From positions 186,001 through 223,675 of the forward strand of contig QPGO01000055.1 in assembly GCA_008632985.1 (NCBI GenBank): a DNA stretch of 37,675 nt, given 5' to 3'. The position numbers and the translations under genes are program-made. The DNA is from Psammoneis japonica. Lineage: Eukaryota. Below, in pieces: positions 9,001-36,801 of this stretch. The notes below the pieces were generated by a model that ran no database searches, was not told the origin of the DNA, and saw nothing but the letters and a program-made list of their open reading frames with translations. How positions within the stretch are numbered: position 1 is the first letter of the stretch; each line of letters starts with the position of its first letter.

Positions 9001-10814
9001 GAGTTTGCACCGAAACATAAGTCGGGAATCCTGGTAAGTACTCTCACGTCTTACTCGCCCTTCCTTCTGTGAACGTTCTTACATCTCTGTTTCCCGTTTC
9101 TAGTGCTTGCGTTCTGCGACAATTTCTCCGAGTAATCTAGCCATTGCCATTGATCTTGCTACAATTGTGCGGTTCTTGAATTTCGTCAATTGCATAAAGA
9201 ATCACGCCACCGATATAATGGCCGAAGCTGAAACGAGTGAGGCACTCATGGGTCTCCTTGCCTTAGATGTCCAATACGAGAAGCTCCCAACATTCCCCGA
9301 CCTTGAATCGATCTATTGCATGCTTGAGGATGCGGGAAAAGCCGACGTAAAACGTCAAAAGATTTACTTTGAGGGCCTAAAAATTCTTCCTTACAAAATC
9401 AGGTTGAGTGTTGCGCCCTCTCGAGCTTTGTCACCGGCCCAGGCCGCCGTGGAAGGTCCTGAAGCTGCGGCTATTCACACAGCCGTTAGACGAGGGGACT
9501 TGCTAATCGGAGACGAGGGCAGCGTCCTTGGTGTTCATGTCGGAGGAAGGAACAAAACGGCTATTGCCGTGGTTAGAGGCGTTTTCAAAAGCATTCTCGT
9601 TGACGCAATTCTTAGGTGTGATGGCGCTTCCATGAAGTTTCCAGGGGTCGTCCTCCGCAACCACATTTCGTCAGGCTCACAACTAAAAACATTTTTAGCG
9701 GCGCATTATCTTGCTTCTCTTCGCAAGAACCTGCCTTCTCTCATTGGGTCGCTTGCTGCTTTTGGCAATCCCTTAGGTTTAATTCGTGGCCTTGGCGATG
9801 GTGTAAGGTAAGTTCCAGATTACAATGAGAGTACTTCTTCAGTTCCTGACACGCGATTGCCGTCCTGCCAGTGATTTTGTCAATGAACCGGTGAAAGGAC
9901 TGAAGAAGAGTGTTAAAGAACTGGATCCCACTTTCGTTGTGGACGGCGTGGCTCGTGGAACAGAGTCGTTGGCGCGACACACGGTCAGCGGATTTGCAGA
10001 CTCTGCAGCTCTCTTGGCGGAGACGTTGGCGAGAAACATGACTATAATGACTCTAGATCGCCGATATGCCCAGCGCCGTGATCGCAAGATTGCACCACGA
10101 TCGGAAAGGGAGAACACCACCACCTTTGTGGAGGGCATTGAAAGTGGCGTTGCCAAGCTAGTTCGGGGGGTGCTGGAAGGTGTCACTGGAGTCGTAAAGG
10201 CACCGCTACGAGGAGCAGAGAAACGCGGCGTGGAGGGGTTTGCCAAGGGAATAGGAAAAGGACTCTTGGGCTTATTGGTAAAACCAATGATTGGGATTTC
10301 GGATGCTGCCACGGATGTAATGCTTGGTGTGAAGGGAAGCATTGATGGAGGTGGTAAGACCTTGCAGCGCACCGGAATTCATAGAGAGCAAGTGCGCCCT
10401 CGACGACCTCTGTACGGGCATAATAGTCTCCTCCGACCATACAATCTTGCAGACGCTGCCGCCTGTGCTCTAATGATGAGGACGCGACTAGCAGGAGAAA
10501 AATACTGGAATCACTTTGATCTGGAAGACAGGGTTGTCCTCTTGAGTGTGAAGCGTTTGCTGATGTTGGGACAAGGAGGCGAGGAGCTGCTCCTTGTGAG
10601 CTATGGGGACGTCATTGATGCCAAAGTCCACCAATCCAATATCGACGCAGAAGGAAATGCTGAGTGGAGGATCCTTATATTCCTGAAGGACCCCTCGAAC
10701 AGCGGAAACGTTGTGGAACGAATCACTTGCAAAGACGAAGATCAAGCGTTGGAACTGTGTGGAGCAATAAAACAAGGGATTCGACTCTACGTTGATGATG
10801 TGGGTGTCGTCTGA
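1..10814 (+). CDS. VPS13: VPS13-family bridge-like lipid transfer protein, 5'-truncated by the window. Exons: <1-1569, 1641-2624, 2702-3008, 3118-6065, 6150-6700, 6783-8329, 8427-9033, 9104-9807, 9872-10814
   Basis: Nine consecutive + ORFs join in frame across eight GT..AG introns of 64-109 nt (phase checked at each junction). VPS13 hallmarks include DYYHPRNSVWEPLLE, VAB/SHR-BD-type repeats (TPRFLVRNDS..VPFYWSD..WSGGIDI; FRVENLSPFPI), LQVDNHIPNAPFPV, GSLAAFGNPLGLIRGLGDGVSDFVNEP and GVTGVVKAPLRGAEKRGVEGFAKGIGKGLLGLLVKP, followed by a PH-like C-terminus. Stop is TGA at 10812-10814. Confidence 0.95.
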
Positions 10815-11650
10815 AATCATGCCCTCTATTGCCTTACAATACTCACTAGTAGGTGCTCTGCCATACCGCAGAAGTGTTCGACCTGGTATGTTCCCATGTC
10901 CCGATGCTGCTGTTTGTATTCTTCGTCCTGTGGTATCTCACACTCTAGGGCCCTAGTTGTTCCTTTTGAGGCGTCAGACCAAGGCTTATTTGGAGCTAGG
11001 AGAAGCCTTCGTGAAGGCTCGGAAAGAAGTGAGTAAGAATGATGAATTTCCGAGTCGCGTTTTCGAGCCGCCCGGAACGCCACGATCGAAGAGCGAGATC
11101 CAGACGTTGCTTACACAGAAAAGACTGATCGATTGGGAAGGAAGGCTTTCCTCTACGTACGGGATTGATGGAGAATGCAGAAATAATTTTGTCGAAGAAT
11201 AATTTATTTGCTCCCGACGACTGCGCGCAAACAAGACGTGATCGAAATCTTGGCAATGCCTGTTTTAAACGATGGTGACCCGTAGTGCAGATGCGACGAC
11301 GATAACAAAACGAACAGAGGGCCAACGGAGAACGAGTTTCTTGAGGCATTTTGATCACAAGTTGAAAAGGCGGACTCTTGACAGGTGGTGGTTTCAGGTC
11401 TTTTTGTTCAATGTTGCCAGACGATAGACAAGCGTGTTAGCAAATGTGTTTAAATTGAAACGACTTCGCTCTACAATACGTCATGATTGTGGCATTTAAA
11501 GCACAGGCAAAGCAACGGTGCTCTGGACGCCTATTACCTTACCAGAACCTCTACTAGAGCTAGTATTTCTACTCAAGAAGTAGCAGAGCGCAGAAACGAT
11601 TACGTATTACGGTAAGCTCTATGCTAACTACTAACCACCGTAACTGCTGG

Positions 11651-11785
11651 TCCGGTGGAAATTCTTGCGACAAGGGGAAGTTCTGGCCAAACTGCGATTT
11701 GGAAATTCTTGCGGCAAAATCCGGTGGAAATTCTTGCGAAAAGGGGATTCGGCGAGAAATTCTGGCCAAACTGCGATTTGGAAAT
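11651..11785. repeat. Short imperfect direct repeat (two ~65-bp units) upstream of the small zinc-finger gene
   Basis: tccggtggaaattcttgcga..aagggga..ttctggccaaactgcgatttggaaat occurs at 11651 and 11720; the sub-motif ggaaattcttgcg occurs three times. Confidence 0.85.
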
Positions 11786-11982
11786 ATTGTTCCTGGGCAA
11801 TGACAGGAATCAGGAATCTTCCTACGGTAGCAAGCGTGCTGCCTAAAGAGCGATGCGCTCGGTGCGCGGTGCGGCCACCATGGGCAGCATGGCCTTCAAT
11901 CCCGCGGCGCGTTGCTTCAAGAGCAAGGGAAAGCACGAGTAAAAAGCAAAACACAAAACGAACAACATACCCCTCGTTCACC

Positions 11983-12312
11983 ATGTCAAAGACGGATGGA
12001 AAGTTTGATACAGAACCCGAAATTGCTGTAACCGCAGAAGCGGTACCAGCGGGAGGAGGTCAACAGGCAGGCAGCATCCCACCCGGGCATTCCCGCTTTT
12101 ATTGTGAAAAGTGCCGTGCGGTATGTTTTGGCTGTGTATTTCGAATTGCTGTATTGTACGCTGAAAGTAAACTTACCTTTATTCATTCTTTTTTATGAAC
12201 GTAATTGCAGCCATATGACTTACCAAACAAGGCCACAAGTTGGAGATGCTCAAACTGCTCGACTTTCAATTCGATTACTCCGGGAGAATGCGAATGGTGT
12301 TCTATCTTGTAG
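11983..12312 (+). CDS. 79-aa cysteine-rich zinc-finger protein with C-terminal CaaX (CSIL). Exons 11983-12120 and 12211-12312
   Basis: ATG in ccATG context; phase-0 intron GTATGT(12121)..TTGCAG(12210). The spliced product ends ..FYCEKCRAPYDLPNKATSWRCSNCSTFNSITPGECEWCSIL* (TAG 12310-12312). Confidence 0.85.
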
Positions 12313-12738
12313 AACGTTAACGACGTTTTGTCGTTTGTGGGTTCATTTGTTGAAAGGGCTTATTAGTACTTTGAGACTGTAGTTGATATGTTTGGTTTGA
12401 AGCAACCGTGTTCATGACCGTTTAAACTGGAGATACGGGAAAACGCGAAACAGAAGTGTGCAGTTTGCGTAGCGCTTTTATGCTAGAGAGTGGGATGGTT
12501 GAAGTATGGGCGGTGTGGTTGTCCGTTGTAGGAATTCAGCCCCCCTTTTTTAGCTGATTCTGTTATCGCGATATACTGTGTTTTCTTCAACTGTGATCTG
12601 TGATCTCTTTGTGAGTTTGCCTCGAAGGCTGGACTGCACTAACCGTTCATTCACAGTCACGAAATATTACAGATACCAGTATTGCTTTGACTAGCTTTAT
12701 CCTCGCCTCATTAGATATTTATGCTGATTTACACACCA

Positions 12739-13621
12739 TTATTCTTTCTGCTCTTGTGCCTTGGGCGAAGGTTCGTCAACAAAGTCCGCCTTGATTTTTC
12801 GTCCCAAATGCCAAGCAGAACTTCCAAAGAGAGCCACATTGACACTACAGAGCGTGTAATTGATTGGCGTCACCAAGAGTGCATAACGAGAAAAGAAAAA
12901 TCCCGTCAGAGTCAAGGCCGTGTACTGCGCCAGAGAAATCTTGTCTGTGGGGCGATTTAAATCCAAAAAGCTCGCGCCCGAAATGAACCATTTCTGTAAG
13001 AAGCATAGCAGAGAAGTGTAAGACTCAATAGCTAAGATAAAATAACAAATTATCAAACACAATAGGCAGGCTCACACTCATTGGTGCCCAGAAATGAACC
13101 GTAAAGGGTCCTGCATCGGCTGCAGCCACGGTAGAAATAACGCCCAAGTTGGCCTTGACTAGTGCGCTCTGGAGTGCAGGCCCGAGCGCGATACAACCCA
13201 AACCACCCACAGCGGCCATAGCTGCCTTTTCGGTAATTTCCTTTACTTGTTCTTCTTGGCCGGTTTGGTTTTTGTATTCCAGGGCACGACGCATTTGATT
13301 GGTTTGAGCCACAACGTTGGTGGCATGACAGGCTGCCAGAAGGAGGTTCTGAGGCTTCACAACCAGGGCCCACCGGCAAAACAGAGATGAATACACTATA
13401 AGAACACCAGTCATGTTAAGACTAATGATTTCAGGACCCTGTAAGGCCGCATCGTAAATGGCTGCGCCAGACATTCCCCATCCAGCCACCGCACCGCAGG
13501 CTCCCCAGAATTCAGCAGAATGCCACCAGCCTTTCTTTGCCTCTCCAGAAGAAGCCCATCGGCGATAAATAACCTGGCGAGAGCGCGCCAATGTCGCTGT
13601 CGATGCGCGAGAATACATCAT
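12739..13621 (-). CDS. MPC: Mitochondrial pyruvate carrier, tandem MPC1-like + MPC2-like single polypeptide (~266 aa). Exons 13621-13076 and 12993-12739
   Basis: Arg/Ser/Ala-rich presequence-like N-terminus (MMYSRASTATLARSRQVIYRRWAS). Domain 1: HSAEFWG..WG..AAIYD..PEIISLNMT..YSSLFCRWALVVKPQNLLLAACHATN (MPC1-like). Domain 2: AGPFTVHFWAPMS|KWFISGASFLDLNRPTDKIS..RYALLVTPINYTLCSVN (MPC2-like). Phase-0 intron GTGAG..TTACAG at 13075-12994. Confidence 0.92.
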
Positions 13622-14625
13622 GGTGGCTTTCGCTTCCTGAAGCAGAAAAAAAAATAACATAGGCCATACATGAGAAAAGAGAAAACGATTGGCAGCGCGC
13701 GCGCAGATGGCAGGTGGGCTGGCAGGTTCAACGCAGTTCAACAGGATGGACGGCGGCAGCGATGCGCGAAAGGCAGGACACGCGCGAGGAGAGCTCATCG
13801 ATGATGGGCGAGAAGAAGTTGGAGCGACGCCCCAGCAGCGAGCTCTTGTCTCGATGTTGCTGCCTCTTGTGGTTGCAATGCCAGTGGCTTGCCAGAGCTG
13901 TAGATGGTGCAATTCTCCCATCCCACCCACTGGTTTGGTTCTGGCTCTGGGCTCAGGCGGCCCCGGCCGATGTTGGAGAGCTTGGCGAGGGCTTGCTGGA
14001 GCTTGGGTGGGTGTCCCCAAAACCGCCACCTTCGATCTCCCACCTCAAAGACCACTGCACTGGTTGTAGGAACAGATGCATCAGACCAGCTTCAAAGCAT
14101 CTTTGGGATGGAGGTGCACGAGGTGCCAGGTGCTCTGCGAAGGGAGCCATTTCGTGCCGACCATCGGCGAAAACAAAAAAATTGTGTTGAGTTCATTGGC
14201 GCAACTGTTTGCATCATAAATTTCATGTTCATGGCTGAAGCTCAAACAAACAAGAAAGAGGAAAACAAAAATGGCAATGGCTTTCATCGGCCATGTCGGC
14301 CCCCTCTTTTGACTTTTGATGAGTTGAAGGGCATCATGAGGACCACAGCATTTGGCACAATTGATGTGCAAGCCATGCATGACAGCTGGCGATTGTTGCA
14401 GTCTGCGGCGCACTTGTGTGCTTCACCATGGTGACTGCTGCTTTCAGAGGCAACAGCCAGCCTCCCTTTGCAACCAATGGAGACCTGGACATTTAAAAAA
14501 CGGGGGACAGCCAGCGCACCTCGTGCAGGAAAAATCGAAAAGAAAACACAAAACATCAAAAGACACACAACATCAAGCAGTTGCAAGAAAGTCAGTTGAC
14601 AAACAACCTTGTCAGAGACAATGAG

Positions 14626-15031
14626 GACGGGTTCCAGTCCCAGCAGGTGGGATGTTTTGTGACATTCGGCCCGCAGAATTCTGCGTGCGAGCTCTGCAGT
14701 GCGAGAATTTAATCAATGCATGTTTTTGTCTTCAACATCAAATGAACGGCCAAGTTTGTAGTGCATTCATGCCTGTCCATGCTCAAAGTTTTCAGCAATC
14801 CGCCTGCCCTGCGCCATTCTTAAGATGTTTGCAAATGGCGCAGAAGAAAAAATGTCAAAAGTTGTTGAATGGATCGCCCAACAATTGCACTGCAAAATGA
14901 CACAAAATTCCACCAAAGTCACGCATGAATGATGCACTTGCGCAACATACGACGCGATCCAAAAAACTGCTGGGAGTGTCGATGTCACAGTTCAGCAGTG
15001 CGAGGTCCCACCTCCAGAGCTGGAATGCGTC
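14626..15031. mobile_element. Non-autonomous TIR element (MITE family A, copy 1, ~406 bp)
   Basis: Ends GACGGGTTCCAG..AGGTGGGA and TCCCACCT..CTGGAATGCGTC. Flanks TGAG (14622-14625) and CGAG (15032-15035) are a 4-bp TSD with one CpG transition. Colinear with 22685-22827 plus 25555-25804. Confidence 0.85.
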
Positions 15032-15035
15032 CGAG

Positions 15036-18000
15036 GTCAAAACGACTGCTGCATTGGAAATGCAAAGAAACAGTCATCAGCATTTCGCACTTGCGCCACA
15101 GGCTTGTGCACAAAATTGGCCTGGAGCCCAAAGGCAAGCCACATGTCATGTGCTTGTTCCACCATTTCAAAAGGATGAGTTGGCCATTTGTGACATCGCC
15201 GGTGCAATCTCTTTGTTTTTCCTGCTTGCACGTGACATTTGCACTCCCCCAACAACAAGAGGGCGGCCAAGACAAGCATGACAATGCTTGCCACCAACAT
15301 GAACGAGCACCCCTGCAATTGTGGTGAACCCCACTTGTCATCATGAAGCCTGCTCCGCCACCCACCACACCCATGCTCAACACCCATTCCAGTGCCGACT
15401 CAACCACCAACTGCACCATCATGCATGCCATCTGCAATGCAGAGTGATGTGCCCTCACATGTGCCAACCACGACTCCATCATCTGTGCCAAGCAGTGCAC
15501 CATTGTTGACAATGTTGGACACAGAAGATTGCTTGGAAACATGACCTTCGATCCATGGCAATGTCCAAATTCTTAACAAAGCACAAAGCCTGCTCCACAT
15601 GTCATGCATGGGACAATTGTGCTCCAAGCACAAAAGACAAATCAAGGCACATGGTTGCCACTTGCGCTGCTGCATCTTCCCAATGGCACGGGTCCGCTGA
15701 TGTGATTGCTGTTTCTGAGACAAGCCAGCTGGCATCAATGTGCAACAAATGAGTCGTCTCCACCGTGTGCCACACTGCAAGTGCACAATCTCTCTGCTGC
15801 AAAATGGCACACAAGTCATCAACCAACGCTCCATCTTTGTGGAGAACATGATCTCTGTGGCAGATGAAGCTGGGTTCTGATGTGTCATGCAGCAACAATG
15901 CAGCTGCCAGGATGAGACTGATGCAACAAACTGACAGTCATGGAGGTGACGCTGTTTTTTTTTTTTTAATCAGAATGTTGTGAATTTCTGTGCACCATGT
16001 GCTCTGTCCCACATTTTTTAAATGGCCAGGTCTCCATTTGACACCAAGCACCATGATTTCTTTTCCTTTGTCATGCAAGCCATTTTCCAGCTGTTGACTG
16101 GTGCAAGAGTTTCAGTCATTGACACCAAGAAAGCAGCAAAGAAGGGTCCAAAAAGTTCATGCCGTTGCAGTGCTGATGTTTTTCTTGATTCATCTGTTGT
16201 GCAATTTGTTGCCCAACGAGCATGCGGTGAAATGGCAAAACTGTTGAATTGCAAGCATCAAAATGCATGTGCAAAAACCACTCATTGTGTGCACCACATT
16301 GCAAAATTTACACAAAAGAACACTCATGTGTGTCACATGTCAGCACACTTGTGCAAACACAAATTGCTTGAGGAAAAATTGAGCTCTCATCTTGCACCAC
16401 CATTTGGCAACAACGGGTCCAAAATCAATCTTCAGAAACAATGATGTGGGCACACAAACGAGACTTTTCTGCATGTTGTCATGTCTGAATGTTTGAATGT
16501 CTCTGATTTTTCACTGCAAAAAATTGCACCACAAGTTTGGGCCATTTGTTTCATGTGCAACAATCTGGAGCAGCACTGCCAGATGATCCAGACAGGATGA
16601 GCTGTGATTTCTGCTGCAACTGGTGCTGGACAGAAACAACAGCAAAACTTCATTTTCTGCTTTGTGCTCAGCCCAGTCATGAGTGTTTTTGGCCCAGGAA
16701 GTTGCCCCTGATTGTCTTGGAATGGAGGGCATTGGGGGTCGTCTTTGATGTTGTGCATGAAAGCCCAGCTGACAGCGCCATTGCATCAATCCTGCTGCCA
16801 TGTGCATTGTGCATTTGAGCATCTTGCTTGCATTTTGTGAGGACATTTTTGCTTGTCTCCACACACAAACACACTCAATCATGGGTTTCTGTTGTCGTGC
16901 AATGCATCCTCATGGCTTGTGCATGTCTGGAATGTGGCCATTGCACTGGGACAAGCCTGCTGCATCACAACTCTCTTTGGTGCAGCAATGTGCACAGGCT
17001 GGTGTGGGCCAAGATTGGCTTTCTCCAACAACAATGTCAATCACTGTGTTGACATCACAAAAAAGAATTCCCCTTGCAGCGAAACTTGCACTGTGGCTGT
17101 GCAATCTTGAAAATTTGCTGAAAAGTCACTCTGAGCTCATTGCACTGCTGCAAGCTGCAGCAGCAACCTTGTTCTTCACAATGCTGTGAACAAAGTTGAG
17201 CTCAAAATCAAGAACACATCAGCACATCTTGAAGGTCTTGACCATGTTGTAAAGTGAAGCTGGCCCAAATTCATGGCCCCTCTCTGTGTCTTCTGTGTGC
17301 CCACTGTTGCTTGACCATGCAGCATTTTTTGCAATGGACCACATGACATTTTTTAAATGGCCCCTTTTTTGTGCATGTGACAGGCTGAGGTTTTGGCACT
17401 TGCCTGTGGAGGATGCCAAAAGGTGCAGAGTTTCTTTTCCCTGGTGGCTTCTCCTGCCAGTTCATCATGGCTCATTTTCTTCAGCCCTCCATGGCTGGGA
17501 CTCCACTGGCCTGCAGAATTCTGCCTGTGAGCTCTGCAGTTTGCACACTGGGCAACAAATCTGTTTGTCTTCCAAATCTGGACAAATGGCCAAGTTTGCA
17601 GAGCAGCCTCTTTGTGCTCCCAATTTTTGAAAATTTGCCTGCACAGCACCATTCTGAGCACATTTGTGAATGGCTTTGCATGCAAAAGATGTCAAAAATT
17701 GTTCAACAGATTGCCCAAAATGGCCGCACTGTAAAGTGAAGCAAAGTGCTGCCAACGTCACACACAGAAATGTGTGCACACAACATGCAGCAAAAGACAA
17801 ACAAGGGGCACAAATGTTGCAGCCAAGCAGGGTGAGGTGCACCCAGCAGAGCTGGAGCACATCACCTTCTGTGGCAAAGTTTGCAAGGTCTGGCTCATTT
17901 GACTTTGCAGATGATGTGCCAAGACCTGTGTTTGTTGGCATTTCAGGTGGCACAACCACTTGATGGGCTTGCAGTTGCAAAAAGACATTGAGCAGACATG

Positions 18001-21000
18001 TGTGCCGGGCCAGATCTTGATCTCAGTGGAGCTGATTTTGCACAAAGGGCTCATCCAATGGATGGAGGATCATCATTCAAAGCTTCTGTGACCAGCAAGT
18101 TGATTTGAATTGAGCTCATGGTTCCTGACAAAGCTGAGCTTGGCTCCAGCACATTGTGGTTGAGAGCTCAGATGAGCAGGGAGAAAACTCACTGCTGGGA
18201 CATGCTCTTGTTGCCCCTGCTGTTGATGGGCTTTCCACCTCATGACTTGTTTTGCATGAGATTTTTTGATTTTTTGGGTTGTGTTTTGCACATTTTAGCC
18301 AGCCCATTGTTCTCCCCTCTGTTGGCATCTTGGATGCATCAGAGAGGTGAAAAGGGGGGTCATGAATCATGGCCTTAATTTTCTGCGTGGACTTGGTGAG
18401 CGTGCGCCATCATTCATTGAGTTGACCCCTCTCTGGCTGAAGTGCATGGTCACTTGTTGGCAGTTGACCTTTGTTCATTTGTTTTTGATCTCTTTGTTTG
18501 TCTTGCATGTGACAACTGCCTCACAACAAATTGCATTTGTGACGCACATTGTGGCTTGAGTGCCGGCCATTGCACACCTGACCCCATCATTCATTGGCTG
18601 AAATCTCAGCTGCTTTTGTTTGGCAGAACAATCTTCGCTTCTGTTCAGTGATGTTTTTATGACTGCAAGCAACATTTCATGTCAATGGGAAGGGCAACTT
18701 GACCACAACTCAACTTGGTGCACTGCATTTGCCAGCTTTTGTTGAATTTCCTTTGTCCAACCCCCCCCTCCCCCAACTTGGTCCCAGCAGCAATCTTGCC
18801 CCACAAACTTTTCATTTTTGTGTTTCCTCTTGAGATGACAAGGCAAGATTCAAATGGCCTTTGCACAGTTGATTGATGTGCCAGCAGCCTGCATGGTGCC
18901 TTGCACTCATCACAGTGCATCTCACTTTGCCACCATCATGGCTGCATGCTGCACCCCCCCCCCCCCCCAAAAAAAAATGTCTCTGACCCCATCGACAAAT
19001 CTTCTGAAGGTGGGGATGGCAGCATTGAAGAGGATGATTCACTTCATGAGGATGAAGTGGAGTTGGGTTCCTTTCATGTGGAGTTGCAGCACAAAGCTGG
19101 CAGCATGGATTTGCTTTTGGAGATGATGAGTCTGGAGATCAAGGCCCATGTGGTGCCAGTGGGGACAGGAACAACTGTGATGTGCTGGTGCTTGGTTTGT
19201 TTTCCTGTTTTCGTCATCATGTCAACTTGATCATTTTCTGTTGATGTTCATCAGCTCTTGAGCACAACAATGATGAGATGGTGTTTGTGAGTGGCAGCAG
19301 CCACCATTGCAATGCAAAAGATTGGTTCAAAAGGACCACAGAAGTGCAGAAGACAAGGAGGTCTTTCCTTGCCTGCCATGAGCAGAGCCCAAGCCCTGAC
19401 TTTCTTGCACTGCCCTGTCTGCCGCAAAACCCCAAGAGAGGAATGCGCCGCTGTTTTGAGCAAGTGATTGCCATGAACAACACAACCAACAAATCCTTGG
19501 GATGCCAATGTGGGACTGCAAATCCCATGGTTGGATCTGCAAGCTGGAAAAGATGAAGGGAAATTTTGCTGGGCAGTTTGTTGTCCAGTGCCAGAAAGCT
19601 GCCAAGCCCTTTGACAACCTCCATGCTGTGGCAAGAGTTTTCAAGCCATGGTGGATTGTGTGCACAAGTTTGTCGAGCCCAAGTGCATCTGCAGCTGCAC
19701 AACTTCTCTTCAAAAGAATGGTTGCATTGCCAGCACCAATTTTCTTGCACAGACACTGAGCATTGCCATCTCCACAGTTGAGGCTCTCTTCTGCCATGTG
19801 TCACCAATGAAGAGACAGTTGCTGCTGCTGGTGCAAGTTGGTCTTTTTTCAATGTTCAAAGCCAAAGACTTTTCTCCTCACCATTGCCAACAATCTTCTG
19901 CAAGTTGCCTGTGCCGAAGCTAAAAGTTCTGTCTGGCAATGTCACAAAGAGCCTGTTGAAGCAAGGGCTGGGTGCCATTGAGGGTGCTGTTGCGTGCAGA
20001 GCACATGGTTGAAAAAGAACATCTCAGTGTCACAAGCTTGTGGAAGAGCAGATGTGCACAATGTTCCTTGGGACTTGCAAGAATCTCCAACAGAAAAAAT
20101 GAACAATCTTGCAACAGCCTGCTCCAGGGTTTGTGACTTGACCTGCTGATGCCTGAAGCCCAAGGAGAAAAAATGTTTGCCTCTTTGATGTGGATTGGTG
20201 TCAAGAGCAAAGGCAGAAAGATGGGCATTTTCCCAGCTTTGTCTTTTTTTCTCACGTGCCATTTCCCTTTTTGCTTGTCTCCTTTGTTCCTTTCACATTT
20301 TTTGGAAATGAGGTTCTCTGCCCCTGCTGCATGAACAAACATGGAGGGCGCACACTCTCCTTCCCTTTGCAACTGTGGTCCTTCTTCCAGCCCCGGGGCC
20401 AAATTCCCCACCCTCTCTCAACTTGTGCAGAACCTGGACAACAACAATGATGATGTGCCTGTTGCTGGCAATGAGTCCAGTGCCTTGTGGTGGCAGTTTG
20501 TTCTGAAGAGCCATCACAGGCATCCATTGCACTGGATGATGCTGATGTTTGGTTCCCACATGATTGTCAACACCCTTTCTCAACCCTGCAAGATGACCTT
20601 GCCAAGGTGGCTCCTTCTGTTCACACATTTTATGATGGGGTCGACAAAGATGGTGACATTGACAAAGATGCCAATGACCACAAGCTCATTTTTTGTCACT
20701 TGCCTTTGAACTTCCACCTGCTTGTGGACCTCCATGTTCTGACACATTCCTTTGAGTCTGCAGAGCCACTTCCCAAATCCAATGTGGCATGATTGGGAGC
20801 TGAGCAAGGTCTCTCCCAGAGCAACCAAGATTGCACCTGGTCAAACCACACTTTGTTCTGATGACAAGCTGTTCAAGAAGCATTTTTCTGGTCTCAAGTT
20901 TCATTTTGAAGAAGTTGCCCACTTTGTTGTGGAGCAGGGCACCATCAGCAATGAGGGAAGAGATGACAAAGTGGTCAAATTTCTGGAAGCCAACTCTCAA

Positions 21001-21844
21001 GCTGATTTCAGATGACAGCACATCAGAGCCATCCCCCTTGCATGGACTTGACATTTTTGAAACCAACAACAACAAAGAATCTCTTCTCCAAATGAAGGCC
21101 TTGACAGCCAACGCCTTTGATTGCACACAGCTTTGTCAGGACAAATTGTGAGTTGAGTGCTTTGATTTGTCACCATCGTGCAATTGTGAGGAGTGCTGCA
21201 CCCACAAGTTTGGTGAAAGAGCAAGGGAGAAACTTGGCATGGAGTTCACCAGAAACAAGAATTTTGCTCTCCAGCCAAAAAGACATGTTCCTTTTCTGCA
21301 TCATGCATGGTGTGTGTTGTCGAAGATGGGAATCAGAACGTCATTTTCTTCCTCTGTCATGGGGAGCTGGCATGAACAACGCTGCTGCCATTCATGCACA
21401 CACACTCCCCAGATGCCAATGAGATTGCATCTGCAGCAGAAAGAACCCCAGTGGCTGCAGACTCATTTGTGCAGTGGTCATGAGAAGCCCACAGAAGTCA
21501 GCAAACACACTGCTTGTTGGCATGCCCAAACACAGCATGACAGTCAACAGCACCAAGAAATCCAGCACAGTCATCAAAACAAGCACTGTTTTGCAGTTGT
21601 GTGACCACACTCTCATCTTGGCTGACATTGTGGCCATCAATCTACAAACAATCAGCCCCGTGGTGGGAGATGCGGTGTTTTTTGTTGCTCTGAGCATTGC
21701 ATGGGATCGCGGCGCAACTTTAAAATGTGTCACGTCATGCACCATGACAATGCTCAGCTCAGTGTGCAGAACATGGGGTGGTGATGTGCAAACCTCAAGC
21801 AACCTGGAGGTGGTGGCTGTCCAACCCACTCAAAGCAACCCAGG
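15036..21844. other. Heavily decayed, TpA- and CpG-depleted sequence, presumed transposon relics; no identifiable intact gene
   Basis: TA and CG are almost absent and TG/CA are abundant. All six frames are full of Cys/His/Met/Gln-rich, nearly Tyr-free short ORFs. The stretch hosts MITE insertions. Confidence 0.6.
17473..17863. mobile_element. Old diverged relative of MITE family A (left end approximate)
   Basis: Blocks colinear with 14626-15031: ggcctgcagaattctgcctgtgagctctgcagt, ggccaagtttgcagagca, gcctgcacagcaccattct, atgtcaaaaattgttcaacagattgcccaa, and terminal gaggtgcacccagcagagctggagcacatc. Confidence 0.7.
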
Positions 21845-22030
21845 TTCATCTGCGCACTCGCACGAAAATGCACCCCGGCTGCCGTCCATCGTACGCTGAT
21901 TTGCAACTCACACTTGCACCTCCATCGCACAAAAAAACACACCGCACCATGGTGCACGAACTTCGGAGGCCCACCACTCTATGACTGTGACGATTTGACA
22001 AGCGATGCTGTGTGGTCTTGTCGAGCACTG
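21845..22030 (+). repeat. Left terminal inverted repeat (TpA-eroded copy)
   Basis: ttcatctgcgcactcgcacgaaaatgcaccccggctgccgtcc...tttgacaagcgatgctgtgtggtcttgtcgagcactg matches the reverse complement of 31082-31265. Confidence 0.9.
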
Positions 22031-22827
22031 TCCTTGTTGTCCAGCTCCATGTTCTCCGTCCAACATGAGTGGTCGTGTAAAGAAAAAACGCCCATCTTCT
22101 TCATCATCACGATCACCCGCTGTTCCCAAGCGTCCTCGACATGATGTGCCCGCGGTGACGGAACCAGAGGGTTTGGAGTGCTCCAAGTGCAATGCATGGA
22201 TGCCAAAGATGCTGGGAACGCATTTCACAATTGGTTGTTTGAGAAAACATGGGATTTGTGTTGAATGCTTTGCGAGAGCATGCAGCGGTCTAGGAAAACA
22301 CAACAAACTGACATGCCCAAAGTGTGGCACCCTTTGTGCCAAGCATCAGAGCCATTCACTCAAATGCACTCTACAAGATGGAAAAGTGCGAATGCAAAGA
22401 AAGATGTCCATCCATGAAATGGCACAACCTGGCAAGAAGAGGGACTTCATTCGATGCTTTGAAACCGCACTCAAAAATCAAACTGGCTTGGCTGGTCTTG
22501 CCTTGGTCGGATGGAAAGACAGTGGCAAGCTTGATCTGCAAACTGTCATTGTTCCAAAAGACAATCCTTCAGAAATGGGAGACACCAATCAAAAGGATTT
22601 TTTCAAGCTGGTGAAACGTCTTCATTCAATTGTGGTCTACAGCGACTCGAACAAGACTCGGCGATGCGACCCGACGGCACACCCGACGGGTTCCAGTCCC
22701 AGGTGGGACTCTGTGTGACATTGGGCCCGTAGAATTCTACGTGCGAGCTCCGCAGTGCTAGAATTTAATCAATGGATGTGTTTGTCTTCAACATCAAAAA
22801 ATGAACTGCCAAGTTTGTGGTGCAATT

Positions 22828-25550
22828 AAGACTGGCCACATAAAAAGGTGCTGACGCGCGCTCTCGAGCTCTCAAAATTTGTTTCGAGAAAATGGCACTT
22901 GCAAGATTTTTTGAGCGACATCAAACAATTAAAGCATTGGCGTGAAACATTGCACAAAATTTGTGTGCACACAAGGACTGCCATCAATTTTTATTTGCGT
23001 CCCTCTCCGAAAGAACTGCACTGGCTTTGGCGGTTTTCTTTTTCTTATTTCGCGCCATCTGCTCAGCGCTCTCCGCCTGCTTGTTCTTCCGCTTCTCTCT
23101 CTTGCTTTTCGCAACGCGATTGAGGACGTCGTCTCCAGGATGAGGGCACATCTCGTCTTGGTCTGCCTCATCAAGAAGCGGCCGACACTTGGCACAAAGC
23201 TCGACCTTCTTGACATCCTTGACACCTGGAGCTGTCAAGGCAAGTGGTTGTGACGTTTGCAAGTTCTGTTTTCATTGCTCGCTCGATTCTGTCTTCCTCT
23301 TCTTGAGATCCTCGCCAACTTCTGGCTCACCGTCCGCTGCTTTCATTGTCACTGCCGCAGGTTCCGAAGAATCTGTCACTTCAAAGCAGTGGTGCTTCGC
23401 AACTGCGCTGCACTTCTTGCAATGTTGGTCAAAATGCGCTCCATGCCCCACAAAATCCTCCTCCTTCGCTTCAACGACCTGAACGCATTCGGAGGTGTCC
23501 AAGGCTGTCAAGAGTTTGCGGAACGTGCCGATGTTCTTGTCACGGTGAGTTTGCTTGAGGCTGTTGAAGAGCCTGTCACAGGCATTCTTGGTGTGCCCTT
23601 TTGTCAAAAAAATGATGCTCACTTCTTTGAAATGTCCTTGTTCCACCAGGCAAGAAGCAAGTCTCAACACCGTGTTGTTTTTGTTTTGCCCGATGCAGTT
23701 GTCAAAAATCAATGCGAGCTTTCTGCCTGGACCCTTGCTGATGTCCAACAATCCACCATCATGCAAGTGCTTCATCACAAGGGAAGCAACATTGTCACCT
23801 CCCTTTTGGCCAGTGCCCTCATGGCAGACGCGTGCATGCAAAAAATCCTTGAACTCATCTTCCGTCACCGTCACAACTTTTTTCCCCGCAGGATCGGCAA
23901 CCCCAAACATGTTGATCGTCAAAGGAGAGAAGCAGTGCATCTCCCCTGGCTGATCCGCCCCAAAATGTGGAAGCCCACCATTTTGACAACAGTCACCAAT
24001 CCTTGCGTAAGTTCGCTCGCCGTGTGCCTTGTCAGCTTTTGCGTGTTCTGTCGCTTCCGAAATGTGCTGTTGCACGAGTGTCCGTTGCTTTCGAGCCCAC
24101 TCGACGTGCTTTGCGGCGTGCAATGTTTCATTTTCCTGTTCTTCAATCTCTTTCATTCTCACCTCTGCATCTGCTCCATCTTCTTCATCATCATCGCTCT
24201 CCTCCTCCTCATCCTCGTCGTCGTCGCTCTCACCCCCCGTCTTTTCTTTCATCGCTTTCATCCTGAAGCTGTTTGCGAACTTGTGGCATTCGTCGCAGAT
24301 GTCACGAGTGGGCCTTCTCACGACAATTTCAGGACAGTTCTTTTTCCAGAACTTGCAAAATTGTGCCCAGGAGCATGTTGGTTGCTGGTCTTCTCCTTCG
24401 ATTGGTTCCGCCTTAAGAAACTTGCCTTTGTGGTTCGACCCAAGGGTCCAACCATTTTCTTGTCCGCACCGTTTGCACAATCCACGCTTTTTCACGGTGG
24501 GAGGTGAGTCGCACGTGTCTTCATCTCTCAAGCCGACACCTGTCTCTTCTCTAACCAGTCTCGTTGCACGTGGCTCAGAAAGTTCCTTTGTGTCATCAAA
24601 ACATGCATGAAGGGCTGCACACATTTCGGGTGCAAGCGTCTTGTTCGCGTTCTGCCCAGTCTTCCCTTTGAGACCATGTTGCGGAAAGACATTGCTCTTT
24701 GCACTCAACTTGGCGGTTCTCCAGAACTTTCTCCCTTTGCCTGGCAATGCAAGGAGGGCACTGCAGCAGACCAGATGATCGTCCGGCGGCGTCCCCTCCT
24801 CCGCCTCCTCCTCGTCGTTGTTGTCAGTTTTCAACAGCGGCAAAACAAAGCAGCGACAATCACCCTTGCATGCATGCTTCTGAATGAAAGTGGAACATCC
24901 AATCCAGGATGTAAAAGTGGCATGTGTTTCTGTGCACCCCAGTCTTTCAAAGTGCACGAGGTGGTTGCTCAACATTTTCACGACGGAGGTGTCGTTGTTC
25001 TCCAACATTGCTCTCAGCTTCTGCAGACACTGACATTTCGCAGGTTTCTTTGCAGTCACCTGGGTGCAATGTTCATGGAAAATGGGAGACTCGTTAGGGT
25101 CGGAAAGCCAATCGCAGAACTTTTCTGCCGCCTCATCGTCCTTGACGCCTTTGGTCAGTTTCGGCCACGCCATTTTTTTTGTGACGCTTTTGCTTTTGCT
25201 CTTGTTGCCTCCACCAAGAGAATTTCAAATTCGAGCCTTGTGTCAAGTGCTCAATGATTTGTGTGGACTTGTGTAATCTTAAAAATCACATGCTTTTGTG
25301 CAACTTGTGTGCGTGACTTTCTTGGCATGTCATTTCGCACAATTCCTCAACGGTCAAAACACTCACAGCAAACAATTCAAGCCGTTAATTTAGTTCATGG
25401 CTAATGAAATGTCAAGGAAGCATTGCCAGCCATTGACACATACATCGCTGAAGAGCTGAGATCAAGAGCTTTCGATCGGTGTCCACACCTCAAAATCGAC
25501 CATACGAGCTATTTCGAGCTCCGTTGGCACCTTTCTATGTGGCCAGTCTT
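22828..25550 (-). mobile_element. Sola1-type DNA transposon, copy 1 (2723 bp)
   Basis: 24-bp TIR AAGACTGGCCACATA(A/G)AAAGGTGC. TSD AATT at 22824-22827 and 25551-25554 fits the AWWT target of Sola1. The paralogous empty site is visible in MITE copy 1 at ~14761-14774 (gtgcattcatgcct). Confidence 0.92.
22984..25173 (-). pseudogene. Sola-type DDD transposase (~730 codons) with a premature TGA at 23272-23274
   Basis: Motifs PTRDICDEC, IGDCCQN..LPHFGADQPGE..FSPL, IFDNCIGQNKNN and FLTKGHTKNACDRLF. The stop is CGA in copy 2 (CpG transition). Only one Tyr remains. Confidence 0.9.
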
Positions 25551-25838
25551 AATTATGCCTCTTGCCACTCGACGTTTCTGCAAATGCGCCTGCCCTACGC
25601 GATTCTTAAGACATTATAGAATCGCGCTGTAACAAAAAATGTCAAAAGTTGTTGGACGGATCGCTCAATAAGTGTACCGTAAAATGACACAAAATGTCGA
25701 AAAAATCACGTAGAAATCTACGTGCGCGACATACGACGTGATTCAAAAAACTATCGATGTCACAGTTCAGTAGTACGAGGTCCCACCTAGACCTGGAACG
25801 CGTCACCCTGCTGATCGCGCACTTGCAGATCTTGCAAA

Positions 25839-26754
25839 GACTTGTTCCAGACTTAGGTGGCGCGCACATGCCCCTTTTCGCAGAAAAAATAATTTTTTAA
25901 TGCTTTATTCAACACCATACATATTTAATAAAATTGATCATATAAATGGCTTCTAAGTAAAATAAACAGAATAAACTCGAACAAACAAACAGCCAAACCG
26001 ACCATGGCTTTCAGTGACCATGACGGCCCACTTTTTTCAGCCTTATGGAAAATTGAATGTCATGACCAGGATCTCCGTATTTGATATAGTCTGTGTCATC
26101 AACAACAATAGTGAAAATGCTTGTTGAAGGCTGCAGCGCGGCACAATAATGCTAAATCTGTCAGCAACAACAATTGAGCCTCTATTCACTCACAATTTGC
26201 CTCTAAGGACCATTTCTTTTCTATTACCATGTATATTTCCTCAATATATTCGACTGATTCAAGTGTATCAATCGTTTATGCCTTTTAAACCGTGAAAAAT
26301 GGTCCGAAGTCGACGCCATTGCGTGGGCTGAGCTACACTTCTTCTCATGTCGTCCTAAACTTATTAATCAACGTATGCTTTATTCGATCCGTTGAGTGTA
26401 ACTCGTATTTACGTATATAAACAAAATATTAATTATGCTATGTTAAAGACTTAATTTATATATATTAATTTTATTTTATATGTTTCTTGTTACATTAAGG
26501 CATATATAAATCGCTCATCGGAAAATTCGAGCTCTCAACTTACGGTACAATTTAGCGACTAACAACCGAGTCCATCAACAGTTTCGAATACATGGGTACA
26601 CGCACAAGACAATTCTGTATGTACCCATAACAACACATTTGTAAATTGTTATGTTTTTACTCTATCGAAAATGGTACCGCAAGTGTGGACCGCGCGTTTC
26701 ATGCAAAAAGGGTCATTTTTTCGCGCGTGAGTGCACCCAAGTCTGGAACAAGTC
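25839..26754. mobile_element. Non-autonomous TIR element (MITE family B, 916 bp, AT-rich)
   Basis: 21-bp TIR GACTTGTTCCAGACTT(A/G)GGTG; TSD CAAA at 25835-25838 and 26755-26758. Its excision restores the host transposase frame. Confidence 0.92.
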
Positions 26755-29738
26755 CAAAATCAGACGACAGCTTTTTGTGCAACTTCATGTTCTGTCTCTC
26801 TCATGGGGAAACTAGAAAGGAAGTGGAGGAAAAGAAGGGTGAAACATTGGACAGCGGCGGATGGAACCGTTTGTTCAAAAAGGTTTTTGTTGCTGCTGAT
26901 GTCGTGAGGAGTGTGCGATGCTTGAACGCCAGCAGCGGCATCCTGCAGCCACCAGTTGGCTCACACTTGGCTGCTCAAGTTGCACCTGACAATCTCTCTT
27001 CTCTGCTTTCTGGATTTGGTCTTGTGACGACGAAGCACACTGAAAGGCGGAGGAACCAGAAATTCGCGGATCAAAAAATTCTTGAAGGGTTTGACTTCTC
27101 CAAAACTTTGAAGTTCGACTGCCTGTGTGACCAGCAAGACAACTGTGGACACAAAGTCCGTGGGGGGAAGAAGAACAAGGTTGGCTGTGTTCAAACAACT
27201 CAACAAGTGACGCTTCTGCATGGCCGAGAAGAAGCAACCGCAGACGGACTGTGCTGCAACCCGAAGAATCCAGACCGAGAGGCACTTGGCCGGGAGCCCG
27301 ACCACGATTTCGAATCAGAACGACAAATTGAGCACTTTGATTGCTGTGAAGCTGTGAAAGGCATCAATCAATTGGACAAGGAGCATCTGGCAAGAGCGCA
27401 ATTGGGGGCCATCAAGTCGGTTGTTGTTTGTAAATCAAAAAAGATGTGGCCGACTGCACAGGACGCAAGGATGATGCTGCGGACGGCGGGGTTTGAATGG
27501 ACAGGTGTGCCACACTGGAATGAAATGATGTCACGGGTGATGCTTGAAAATGCTGATTCGGAGCTGCATTTTTTGGAATCATCCATGACTGTGGATTGGC
27601 ACGAGAATGTGCATGTCGACGATGACGAAGACAAAACGCCTGGCGAAACGTCGACTTTTCCATCAGTCAACAAAGGACAAATGGGCATGCCACTTGACAC
27701 TAATTTTGCAAATGCTGCCACGCTGGAAAACATTGTCCAAACAGGTGAGGAGAAGCGAGAGGCGATTCTCGAGAAGTCGACCCTGACGGTTGATCGCAAA
27801 TGGGTGTCGGAGCAAGAGTCGCGGGGCATGGAGCCCCTTCATAAAGATTTTCCGGTTGCGTTTGGTGGGGATGGTGACCCGTGCATCAATCTATTCAAAC
27901 TCCGCCGTTTGAAGAGTCGTTCCGACTTTTGGGGCTGATCATTGTGCTGGGTGGATTTCATGTCATGCTGACGTGCTGGAAAGCGATCGGACGTCTCTTT
28001 GGTGGTGCTTTTTTGATCGATTTCTTTTCATTATGGCGAACCTCGGATGCCCAACTGAACTGGGTGCTAAACCCAGGGGACCCAGGAGCTGTTCTAAGAG
28101 AAACAAATACGATGGTGAATGCAATTTGTCTTTCTGCAACTCGGAAGTGCATCGAAAAGAGAATCAAAGAGTCGCAGGATGGGGCTTGCGAAGTTGAGGT
28201 GTCGGCCGTTGACGTCCTGGACCACATCATCGAGCGAGCAGAAGAGTACCCGATGATCATTTTGATTCTTGCGTGGCTCCGTATCTATCATGTCATACAG
28301 ATGCTGCAGTCCGCAGAAGTGACGGCGTCTGTGTCTCTGTTTCTGTCAGCTTTGAAGCTTGTATCCTTGTATGTTGTGCTGTCTCATCACACAGGATACG
28401 TGTCGCTTATAGCCGACTTTCTAACTGATTGGTGGTGCTCATCACCGGCACTGAAGAAGCTCATAGAGAAAGCGATCTTGTTCAGAAAAACAATCAATGG
28501 GAAGTTCACATATGCCGATAGATTCATGGAATGGATCATCCGTGACGAACGCTACTATTTTGGGGATTATGTCAACGGCACTGTGGACAATCATTACAAG
28601 CAGTGCCGAACAATGGCGATGACGCTAAACACCAGTCTTGCGGTAAAGGGGGCTACAAAGCGAATGGCAAGTGGTCAGCCAAGGAAGCTGGCGCTCATTG
28701 ACAAAGTGTTCTGTGAAACTTTGCTGTATATTGATGATTTGAATCTTTTTGGGGACGGTCCGGTTCAAAAAGTTCCAGCGCGTCCATACTTGGAACGGCA
28801 CGAACATGATCATGCAGGTGACTGGGAGGAAGTGTCGGTCGGGGAGTGCGTCAGCCCATCCGGTGTGGCACTCAACACTGATGCTTGCTTTGGTTTGTCA
28901 AAGTCAGAGATTATTGATAGAGATTTTTTTGATTGTTTCTACACGGAGGCGGAAGATTTGAATGACCCCAGGAGACCCGAGGGTGAGGGTGGAGTGGATC
29001 TGTCGGTGCTGGATCCGCTTAGGAATGCTGACAGTGCTCAGTTTGAGCTAGAAAGGAAGCGTCTAGTGTCAACGGATGCCGCATACTTAATGGAAAAGGG
29101 CGTCTATTTAGCAAAGGAGGCAACGGCTGAAATAGGAAAGCTCAAGGAGGAGCTGCGGAGGTACTACAACGAGGGGAAAATTGACAAAGAGTTCTTTAGG
29201 AGTATAAAGAAATCAGAAACGGTGCGGATCGTTGATGCTGATGGCCAAGCTAGGGTGCGTACCATCCAGAACAAGACTTTCTCCATTGGTGTTATTGTTA
29301 AGGCAAGAAAGAAGCTCATGGAGCTAGATGCAAGCTGGAGTGACAATCGCACAAATGTATAGATGAAAGTCGAGACGCTTGGACGATCGCCCGCAATGAG
29401 GAATTCCAACCCAGGCTGAAAAATGAACTGAAGCACGATCTGTACACGTTTAAGCATACTGAGACAAGGGAGGAGTTTAGTACTAATTCTATACAGTTTA
29501 TCTTGTCTGGAGGAGCGGACGAGAGCGACGACGAAGCGGTACTACTGTCGCAGACGTCAGAAGGACTAGGAAAGCGGCATGCACCGTTTTCCCCTCAAGG
29601 GTTAAGTCAACAGTCACAGTAACTTTGTAGTTCTACAATAAGGATTTTGTACTTGCAAAAGATTGCTATACTACAAGTATCATATGCATTTACGTCTCGC
29701 CAATCACTATCAATACTCCGTGTCCGAGGAACTCACGA

Positions 29739-31081: not shown

Positions 31082-31265
31082 TAGTGCTCGATAAGACCAC
31101 ACGGTATCGCTTGTCAAATTGTTATAGTTATATAGTGGTAGGCCTCCGAAGTTAACACACCACGGTGCGGCGTGTTTTTTGTGTCGGATGCAGAGGTGTG
31201 AATTTACAAATCAGCGTACGACGGACGGTAGCCGGGGTGCGTTTTCGTGCGAGTACGCAGATGAA
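31082..31265 (-). repeat. Right terminal inverted repeat (TpA-intact copy)
   Basis: The reverse complement reads ttcatctgcgtactcgcacgaaaacgcaccccggctaccgtcc...tttgacaagcgataccgtgtggtcttatcgagcacta. Confidence 0.9.
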
Positions 31266-34070: not shown

Positions 34071-34074
34071 ATTT

Positions 34075-36797: not shown

Positions 36798-36801
36798 GTT
36801 T

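Follow-up and report, generated by a model that had tools for sequence, protein, structure and literature searches.

TpA-depleted tracts in Psammoneis japonica DNA point to a flank-dependent TpA mutator of integrated mobile DNA

The closest described system to the one studied here is that of the chlorarachniophyte Bigelowiella natans (Mettrop et al., bioRxiv 10.64898/2026.01.13.699255). Mutation-accumulation lines of this alga acquired 231 de novo changes in an integrated giant virus and a virophage, of which 230 were A>G or T>C, every one at a TpA. According to this 2026 preprint, the hypermutation proceeds at a rate about 1000-fold above background and is episodic between lines, domains of DDE transposases and reverse transcriptases are over-represented among the TA-poor coding sequences of the species, and an ADAT2-like deaminase is proposed; its main text carries no flank analysis and describes neither strand independence nor a coupled loss of CpG. 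It was the only account found by our full-text literature searches on TpA hypermutation, both in diatoms and in general. Here we describe a window of 37,675 nucleotides from Psammoneis japonica (GenBank assembly GCA_008632985.1, contig QPGO01000055.1, positions 186,001 to 223,675 of the forward strand; coordinates below are those of the window) in which two copies of a transposon, miniature inverted-repeat transposable element (MITE)-like repeats and DNA that we could not annotate have lost almost all of their TpA. We know of no enzyme for TpA-specific A:T>G:C hypermutation of invading DNA.

As far as the preprint describes the B. natans process, the locus resembles it in that the change is almost only A:T>G:C, occurs only at TpA and gives TpG or CpA, ordinary genes are spared, and single-copy DNA is also hit. 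It differs in two respects: the host genes here look diatom-like, which would make this a second lineage with a new and extended signature, and the depletion is far deeper, with a TA observed/expected ratio of 0.03-0.08 against the 0.45 given for the giant-virus region of B. natans. We would then be looking at the same process at saturation, in the transposons of a lineage other than B. natans, and the details that are new are a flank signature, strand independence and action after integration, the last proven by discordant sister copies.

Depletion of TpA is organised in tracts. The composite tract at 13750-25400 contains 0-3 TA per 250 bp, versus 6-31 outside, with its left edge just upstream of the host gene for the mitochondrial pyruvate carrier (MPC) and its right edge inside the right end of transposon copy 1. 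A further stretch at 26750-28000 retains five TA and has kept its CpG, and another tract runs from 31260 to the end of the window at 37675 and includes transposon copy 2, CpG being lost as well in 31260-34000 and 36800-37675. Dinucleotide observed/expected ratios, strand-symmetrised, are 0.62 for TA, 1.00 for CG, 1.11 for CA/TG and 1.16 for AA/TT in the control DNA; the corresponding values are 0.08, 0.75, 1.46 and 1.36 in TA-depleted DNA that keeps its CpG, and 0.03, 0.11, 1.87 and 1.25 in DNA that has lost both, such as the oldest part, 15500-21500 (TA 0.03, CG 0.11, CA/TG 1.87). Inside the tracts TG and CA increase up to two-fold, the AT ratio is 0.79-0.84 and overall base composition is nearly unchanged. 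Since AA/TT is not depleted (1.25-1.36 compared with 1.16 in the control), the target is TpA and not WA. The hypermutation is confined to mobile or foreign DNA: the tracts hold the DUF7869 transposase, MITE-like repeats and unannotatable DNA, and the VPS13-like and MPC genes are spared.

The history of the depletion can be read from the transposon, a 2.73-kb element that encodes a DUF7869 transposase between inverted repeats of 33 nt and is flanked by TTAA. Copy 1 (22826-25552, minus strand) is defined by its inverted repeats at 22824-22856 and 25522-25554, by the flanking TTAA at 22826-22829 and 25549-25552, and by a match to Pfam PF25273 (DUF7869) with E=2e-20; copy 2 (34066-36797, minus strand) is 94.9% identical to it by self-BLAST. 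The transposase open reading frame (ORF) of copy 1 (23272-25173, minus strand) is open over 633 aa with a single Tyr, and that of copy 2 (34167-36197) over 676 aa. 'Sola', the name used for the transposases in the preliminary description, is a candidate label only, for a superfamily with a Sola-type DDE transposase, inverted repeats and a 4-bp target-site duplication; Pfam assigns the transposase only to DUF7869, a family for which a literature search under DUF7869/PF25273 found no paper. In the alignment of the two copies, 143 of 163 substitutions are transitions. Eighty-four of these lie in 42 sites (20 + 22) at which one copy has TG and the other CA, and 16 more at sites where TA is left in one copy only, the changes assigned to TpA being transitions by the definition of the sites (TA, TG or CA); about 25 of the remaining 40 or so copy differences are CpG<>TpG/CpA, and TA is present in both copies at 10 sites. 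Unless the ancestral dinucleotide was TA, a TG opposite a CA would take two changes, so the copies must have been near-identical and TA-bearing when they separated, and the 42 discordant sites show that each copy lost its TAs independently and after integration. The depletion is therefore mutational, took place in situ and proceeded independently in each copy.

The encoded proteins carry the same record. Tyr accounts for 1 of 633 residues in copy 1 and 2 of 676 in copy 2 (0.2-0.3%), with Cys and His doubled, whereas the median among 67 homologues is 4.0% and the minimum 2.3%, none of them being Tyr-poor. At the 25 alignment columns with Tyr in at least 40% of 35 homologues, copy 1 has Cys at 9, His at 6 and Tyr at 1, and copy 2 has Cys at 7, His at 7 and Tyr at 1; at six of these columns one copy has Cys where its sister has His, from TGY and CAY codons. 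Among 80 metagenomic relatives of the transposon the median TA observed/expected ratio is 0.62 and the minimum 0.26, as opposed to 0.03-0.08 here, and the three lowest-TA loci of this set showed no flank bias. As TGA arises only from TAA, a change of TA to TG or CA never makes a new stop codon, and this is why the 633- and 676-aa ORFs, together with many antisense ORFs, remain open.

We classified TpA sites as TTAA, as one-flank (TTA or TAA) or as V-TA-B, with neither a T before nor an A after. The preliminary description of this DNA held that the TpA sites surviving in 14060-25430 are almost all TTA or TAA; this is true of the deepest part, 15000-21600, where the 12 survivors comprise 5 TTAA, 7 one-flank and no V-TA-B sites, but it overstates the case for the whole interval, in which 34 of 46 (74%) are of this kind (15 TTAA, 19 one-flank, 12 V-TA-B). 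The 12 V-TA-B survivors lie mostly in the less-mutated stretches 14067-14948 and 21643-22759, and in 31260-34000 the five remaining TpA are one TTAA and four one-flank sites. All ten TTAA sites that had been named were found within 1-2 nt, at 14494, 14710, 14821, 15574, 15967, 16019, 17354, 18376, 21721 and 24414, and the five survivors described as shared by both transposon copies were recovered at 24008/35254 (gcgTAag), 24414/35660 (ccTTAAg), 24552/35798 (ctcTAac), 24912/36159 (atgTAaa) and 22992/34238 (tttTAttt). Resistance is only partial, as had been proposed: ATAA stands against ATGA at 22841/34088 and TTAT against TTGT at 23046/34292, and TTAA was itself converted, probably at 24441 and 24900.

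Counts of survivors have to be set against the frequency of the sites from which they were drawn. The 758 TA of the control DNA in the window are 431 V-TA-B (56.9%), 290 one-flank (38.3%) and 37 TTAA (4.9%), whereas the 53 survivors in strict core zones are 12, 27 and 14, respectively (chi-square against control, p=2e-11), which corresponds to a control-normalised relative survival of 0.027 for V-TA-B, 0.089 for one-flank and 0.36 for TTAA. By class, survivors over control-equivalents are 0/60 for ATAT, 0/100 for ATAG/CTAT, 2/111 for ATAC/GTAT and 14/37 for TTAA. A looser partition gave TTAA as 19 of 67 survivors versus 38 of 768 control sites (Fisher p=8e-9) and a chi-square of 73 over the ten NTAN classes (p=3e-12). 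The survivors likewise differ (p=1.4e-9) from the 11,902 TA of the 80 unmutated metagenomic relatives, which are 53.4% V-TA-B, 39.7% one-flank and 6.8% TTAA.

Ancestral TA sites could also be reconstructed from the two transposon copies where both are mutated (22831-25400), a comparison that uses no outside baseline. Survival was 1 of 44 copy-trials at 22 V-TA-B sites, 18 of 60 at 30 one-flank sites and 8 of 12 at six TTAA sites, two of which (24441 and 24900) were deduced from CCAA-versus-TTGA patterns and are less certain. The three classes differ with p=3.7e-6, and pairwise with p=3e-6 (TTAA vs V-TA-B), p=2e-4 (one-flank vs V-TA-B) and p=0.02 (TTAA vs one-flank). Such a pair does not reveal sites at which the two copies ended with an identical product; when hidden sites are added in a number equal to the discordant sites, following the 6:6 ratio at Tyr-defined sites, survival becomes 1/86, 18/94 and 8/16 for V-TA-B, one-flank and TTAA. 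The ascertainment bias works against a flank effect. Pairs of an unmutated reference and a mutated copy gave survival of 3/25, 1/8 and 2/2 in the same order. The excess of TTAA beyond chance is confirmed on three normalisers, and equal survival of the NTAN classes after normalisation for ancestral frequency is clearly not seen. V-TA-B, which had been put forward as the preferred target, survives at about 1-3%, versus about 9-30% for one-flank sites and 36-67% for TTAA.

The gradient is described by a two-parameter model, a cumulative hazard lambda per adenine in V-TA-B and a factor f by which every protective flank multiplies it. For lambda 1.9-2.2 and f 0.32-0.39, this multiplicative model predicts survival of 0.024, 0.297 and 0.676 for V-TA-B, one-flank and TTAA, compared with 0.023, 0.30 and 0.667 observed. 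A model with one hazard per flanking base (the base before TA or, equivalently, its complement after TA), fitted to the control-normalised data, gives hazards of 2.49 for A, 1.65 for G, 1.52 for C and 0.54 for T. Because the factor per flank reproduces the survival figures, the preference is graded and not a strict motif: each unfavourable flank costs about 3-fold, TTAA is converted about 7-10-fold more slowly, and sites with A before or T after TA are the fastest. The near-exclusive survival of TTAA in the deepest tracts follows from saturation, since about four expected hits per V-TA-B site magnify a moderate preference. The enzyme-like fingerprint beyond TpA that the preliminary description suggested is thus borne out, but is better stated as a graded, roughly symmetric penalty of about 3-fold for each flank.

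One-flank sites also report on which adenine is slowed. In the V-TA-A orientation, TG results when the edited A is the one with another A after it, and CA when it is the adenine on the opposite strand, whose T is preceded by T. Among 15 informative events the products were TG 7 : CA 8, a poor fit to an effect of position -2 alone (expected 3:1, p=0.017) and a marginal fit to an effect of position +1 alone (expected 1:3, p=0.057), so that -2 and +1 must carry about the same weight unless the flank acts on the whole duplex site. A pure +1 effect, suggested by a product-excess analysis in which NTGA gained little over a host-gene baseline, is contradicted by this direct count; the baseline is unsuitable for the purpose, with host codon bias inflating TTGA and CpG decay adding to NTGA. 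The order of TG and CA along copy 1 over the 42 discordant sites gives 22 runs where 22 are expected, hence there is no long-range strand coordination, and the equal numbers of concordant and discordant conversions (6 and 6) in the 12 columns with Tyr in at least 49% of homologues and Cys or His in both copies mean that there is no bias relative to the orientation of the element. Coupling within 10 bp (7 on the same strand vs 2 on different strands) is suggestive but not significant. This pattern is unlike the strand-coordinated clusters left by single-strand deaminases, although many small independent episodes would erase coordination.

In a few places the converted TpA is accompanied by additional non-TpA changes on the same strand, including a few T>C, namely at 24439-24442/35685-35688, 24899-24901/36146-36148, 25094-25096/36341-36343 and 22940-22944/34186-34190; examples are TTTAA changed to CCCAA in one copy and to TTTGA in the other, TTAG to CCAG, and ACATA to GCGTG. 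These hint at short-range processivity, or at a relaxed specificity after the first edit.

The reading that we consider probable is that of a locus-targeted, flank-dependent TpA mutator of integrated mobile or foreign DNA. Such a mutator would act by an A-to-G change at 5'-TpA-3' on either strand, giving TG or CA, and would hit mobile or foreign DNA once it has integrated, continuing until TA is nearly exhausted. Its rate at each site would be set by the neighbouring bases, T before and A after TA each slowing it about 3-fold, so that at saturation sites of the R-TA-Y type would be gone, one-flank sites would survive at 10-30% and TTAA, some 7-10 times slower, would remain. Among the possible chemistries we favour a deamination that turns adenine into hypoxanthine within DNA, the route suggested for B. 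natans, and we rate the chances of this as about even. With both flanks weighing equally, the duplex TA palindrome may be what is recognised. We put forward only tentatively the more specific proposal that diatoms or a close relative defend their genomes by editing adenine within double-stranded DNA at the palindrome TpA, which would be read symmetrically, perhaps by a dimer, with an optimum at R-TA-Y. If so, this would be a natural double-strand DNA adenine editor common to the distant supergroups Rhizaria and Stramenopila, with the flank signature as the fingerprint of the enzyme.

Whatever its nature, the mechanism has to account for an absolute T at -1, penalties of about 3-fold for T at -2 and A at +1, equal treatment of the strands with no long-range coordination, action after integration, tract edges that are off the element edges, and no creation of stops; these constraints argue against the specificities of DNA polymerase eta and of ADAR-like and fungal ADAT-like enzymes. 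Polymerase eta acts on the WA motif and makes A>G changes with a preference for TA, but AA is included and transversions belong to its spectrum; it fits less well, AA/TT not being depleted here and transitions making up 143 of the 163 copy-pair substitutions. Repeat-induced point mutation (RIP) of fungi is similar in being an in-place transition hypermutation of mobile DNA in a dinucleotide context, independent in sister copies and extending over tracts of tens of kb. However, RIP changes C to T at CpA, raises TpA and creates stops, whereas here TpA is lost and CpA/TpG gained, and duplication is seemingly not required here, the DNA at 16-21.4 kb being near single-copy; RIP was rejected for its opposite direction.

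Like the present process, adenine deaminases that edit RNA strongly prefer, or require, U/T as the 5' neighbour of the target A. ADAT (Tad2/Tad3) editing in Fusarium graminearum is reported to have U at -1 in 86% of sites, with A 39%, G 37%, U 17% and C 7% at +1, a slight enrichment of U at -2, and UAA and UAG as the best triplets, and ADARs to prefer U>A>C>G at -1 and G at +1 (PMC4817773). Compared with these reported preferences, the flanks that fare worst here, +1 A and -2 T, are favoured in Fusarium, the latter only slightly, and the T at -1, near-absolute here, contrasts with the A that ADARs tolerate; moreover, those enzymes edit RNA and the targets here are DNA transposons and unique DNA. 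Neither the ADAR nor the fungal ADAT signature fits, as +1 A and -2 T are each disfavoured about 3-fold and +1 T and -2 A are best. ADAT2 of amphioxus acts on DNA, with TCG (cytosine) and GAA (adenine) as targets and hairpin loops in single strands preferred (PMC10354150). On that description it is an ADAT2-family enzyme that deaminates DNA adenine and so a precedent for the B. natans hypothesis, although its targets are not TpA and lack a duplex-like symmetry.

Modified thymine bases are located at TpA in some protists, and a route through thymine can be formulated in which a hydroxylase of the TET/JBP kind modifies T at TpA in silenced DNA to 5-hydroxymethyluracil or a J-like base, whose mispairing with G leads to T>C. 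As A>G on one strand is indistinguishable from T>C on the other, the sequence cannot decide between adenine and thymine chemistry and all of the results above fit both equally; modification of the duplex palindrome on both strands would also explain the strand symmetry. We nevertheless think this route unlikely: modified T bases in diatoms receive no support from this analysis, no hydroxylase gene lies within the window, and the sole published account of TpA hypermutation that our searches found favours adenine deamination (bioRxiv 10.64898/2026.01.13.699255).

To a similar, low degree we credit the possibility that survival reflects DNA or chromatin accessibility and not the specificity of an enzyme, TA at junctions of T-tracts and A-tracts being harder to open, flip or reach. 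Many survivors do lie within longer runs, such as tttttTAaatgg, acattTAaaaaa, aatctTAaaaat and attttTAtttgc, and the two adenines of a one-flank site show the same slowing, as a property of the duplex would predict; the effect is, however, already seen at a single flanking base, and with these data the two are not separable.

The biology of the transposons might itself supply surviving TTAA, through insertion into and duplication of TTAA and through TTTAAA termini, in which case survivors would be recent or structurally required and would say nothing of a mutator preference. Indeed, the TTAA at 22827, 25550 and 34074 stem from duplication of the transposon's target site, and those at 14494, 16019 and 17354 belong to copies of a single motif of the terminal inverted repeats. 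As a general explanation this is very unlikely. Although the copies were mutated independently, both still have the internal TTAA at 22930, 24414, 25280 and 25386, target sites do not explain the intermediate survival of one-flank sites (18/60 vs 1/44, p=2e-4), and a MITE-like repeat keeps two TTAA while 6 of its 7 V-TA-B sites were converted; in addition, selection on the termini is unlikely as the transposase is already wrecked. Finally, an inherited or selected TA-poor composition, owing to foreign origin, codon usage or avoidance of nuclease sites, would account for the bare composition alone and is refuted by the 42 TG/CA discordant sites between sister copies, by Cys or His in place of Tyr at invariant positions, by transposon relatives elsewhere that are not TA-poor, and by the presence of mutated and unmutated copies of the same repeat in one window.

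Several points weigh against the proposal of a flank-dependent TpA mutator or limit its precision. The numbers are small, with 6 TTAA in the copy pair and 14 in all core zones, and the reconstructed sites come from a few repeat fragments and a single transposon family of two copies. The TTAA survivors are not all independent of one another, a minority owing their number to transposon termini and target-site duplications, and for the copy pair the number of concordant conversions, which leave no trace, is an estimate. The control-normalised data are fitted by the additive hazard but the copy pair by the multiplicative one, the numbers being too small to decide, and at saturation the rates among V-TA-B contexts are not separable. 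Further, the content of the window identifies no enzyme, and the flank preferences match none of the characterised adenine deaminases with which we compared them.

Contigs from a public sequencing run, matched to the window at 80% likeness, were evaluated for depth, joints, totals by kind of change and 21 differences. Copy 1 sits in a high-copy MITE-like repeat, and the contigs join 22826 to 25557, the empty site. From a contig depth of 38,000-60,000 (14662-15142, 22358-22838, 25244-26205) against about 58 for single-copy DNA, this repeat has about 650-1000 copies. In the window it occurs as a mutated copy (14626-15031, plus strand, identified by sequence comparison), an older mutated copy (17508-17860) and an unmutated copy split by the transposon (22685-22826 and 25553-25804), which has TA where the mutated copies have TG or CA. 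Since the repeat is mutated at 14626-15031 and not at 22685-22826/25553-25804, high copy number alone is not the trigger. Conversely, the stretch 15500-21500 is near single-copy (depth 57-250 vs about 58), and its portion at 16-21.4 kb is the most mutated DNA of all; as single-copy DNA is the most mutated and a repeat of about 1000 copies is unmutated, targeting is not simply by repetition. Nor do tract edges exactly follow the ends of elements. Six TAs that copy 2 has lost by conversion (36647-36797) persist in the final ~150 bp of copy 1 (25400-25552), TA being retained over 25441-25554, and the MITE-like repeat has largely escaped mutation on either side of copy 1, although the interior of copy 1 is saturated.

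CpG decays in the same tracts, only more slowly: the transposon copies retain 75% of the expected CpG, and in the oldest tracts (15500-21500, 31260-34000 and 36800-37675) the ratio has fallen to 0.11. This slower loss presumably proceeds via cytosine methylation of the silenced DNA. Within the single-copy tract 16057-22049 the public-run contigs are about 0.3% different from the window, mostly by CpG transitions, and they may represent a second haplotype or another strain; most run-versus-window differences are CpG<>TpG/CpA, and among those listed at least two are TA versus CA, both at V-TA-B sites (14547, ATAC; 22042, CTAG).

The genes used as unmutated controls are the exons of a VPS13-like gene (3-10814, plus strand) and the MPC gene (13025-14029, minus strand), both identified by Pfam; over 3-14029 the host genes have a TA observed/expected ratio of 0.45-0.69 and a CG ratio of about 1.0. 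The best named relatives of the carrier are from diatoms (Amphora, 75% identity; Coscinodiscus, 70%), those of the transposase include Pseudo-nitzschia, and the closest proteins in a set of 5.8 billion are 77% identical for the carrier and 38% for the transposase. A further element with 35-nt inverted repeats occupies 14476-16038 (repeats at 14476-14510 and 16004-16038), with a surviving TTTAAA in each repeat and a third copy of the motif at 17354.

When 57 ORFs of at least 110 aa from the old tracts and the stretches between them were compared with Pfam, only two sub-threshold matches were obtained, and the ORFs of 15500-21500 contain no protein domain recognisable by Pfam. Loss of TAA and TAG leaves long spurious ORFs on both strands, such as one of 416 aa antisense to the transposase; they occur at 23257-25257 and 34503-35856 (both plus strand) and in large number within 14000-22700, and gene finders would over-call here. 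For annotation in general, tracts of this kind yield long false ORFs on both strands and Tyr-free 'proteins', to be recognised as such by annotators. Two long ORFs on the plus strand (26646-27938 and 27881-29362), for which there was no Pfam match, cross the sharp boundary between the TpA-depleted stretch 26750-28000 and normal DNA, in a region (26631-29359) whose left part is present about 4-30-fold by depth and whose right part is near single-copy.

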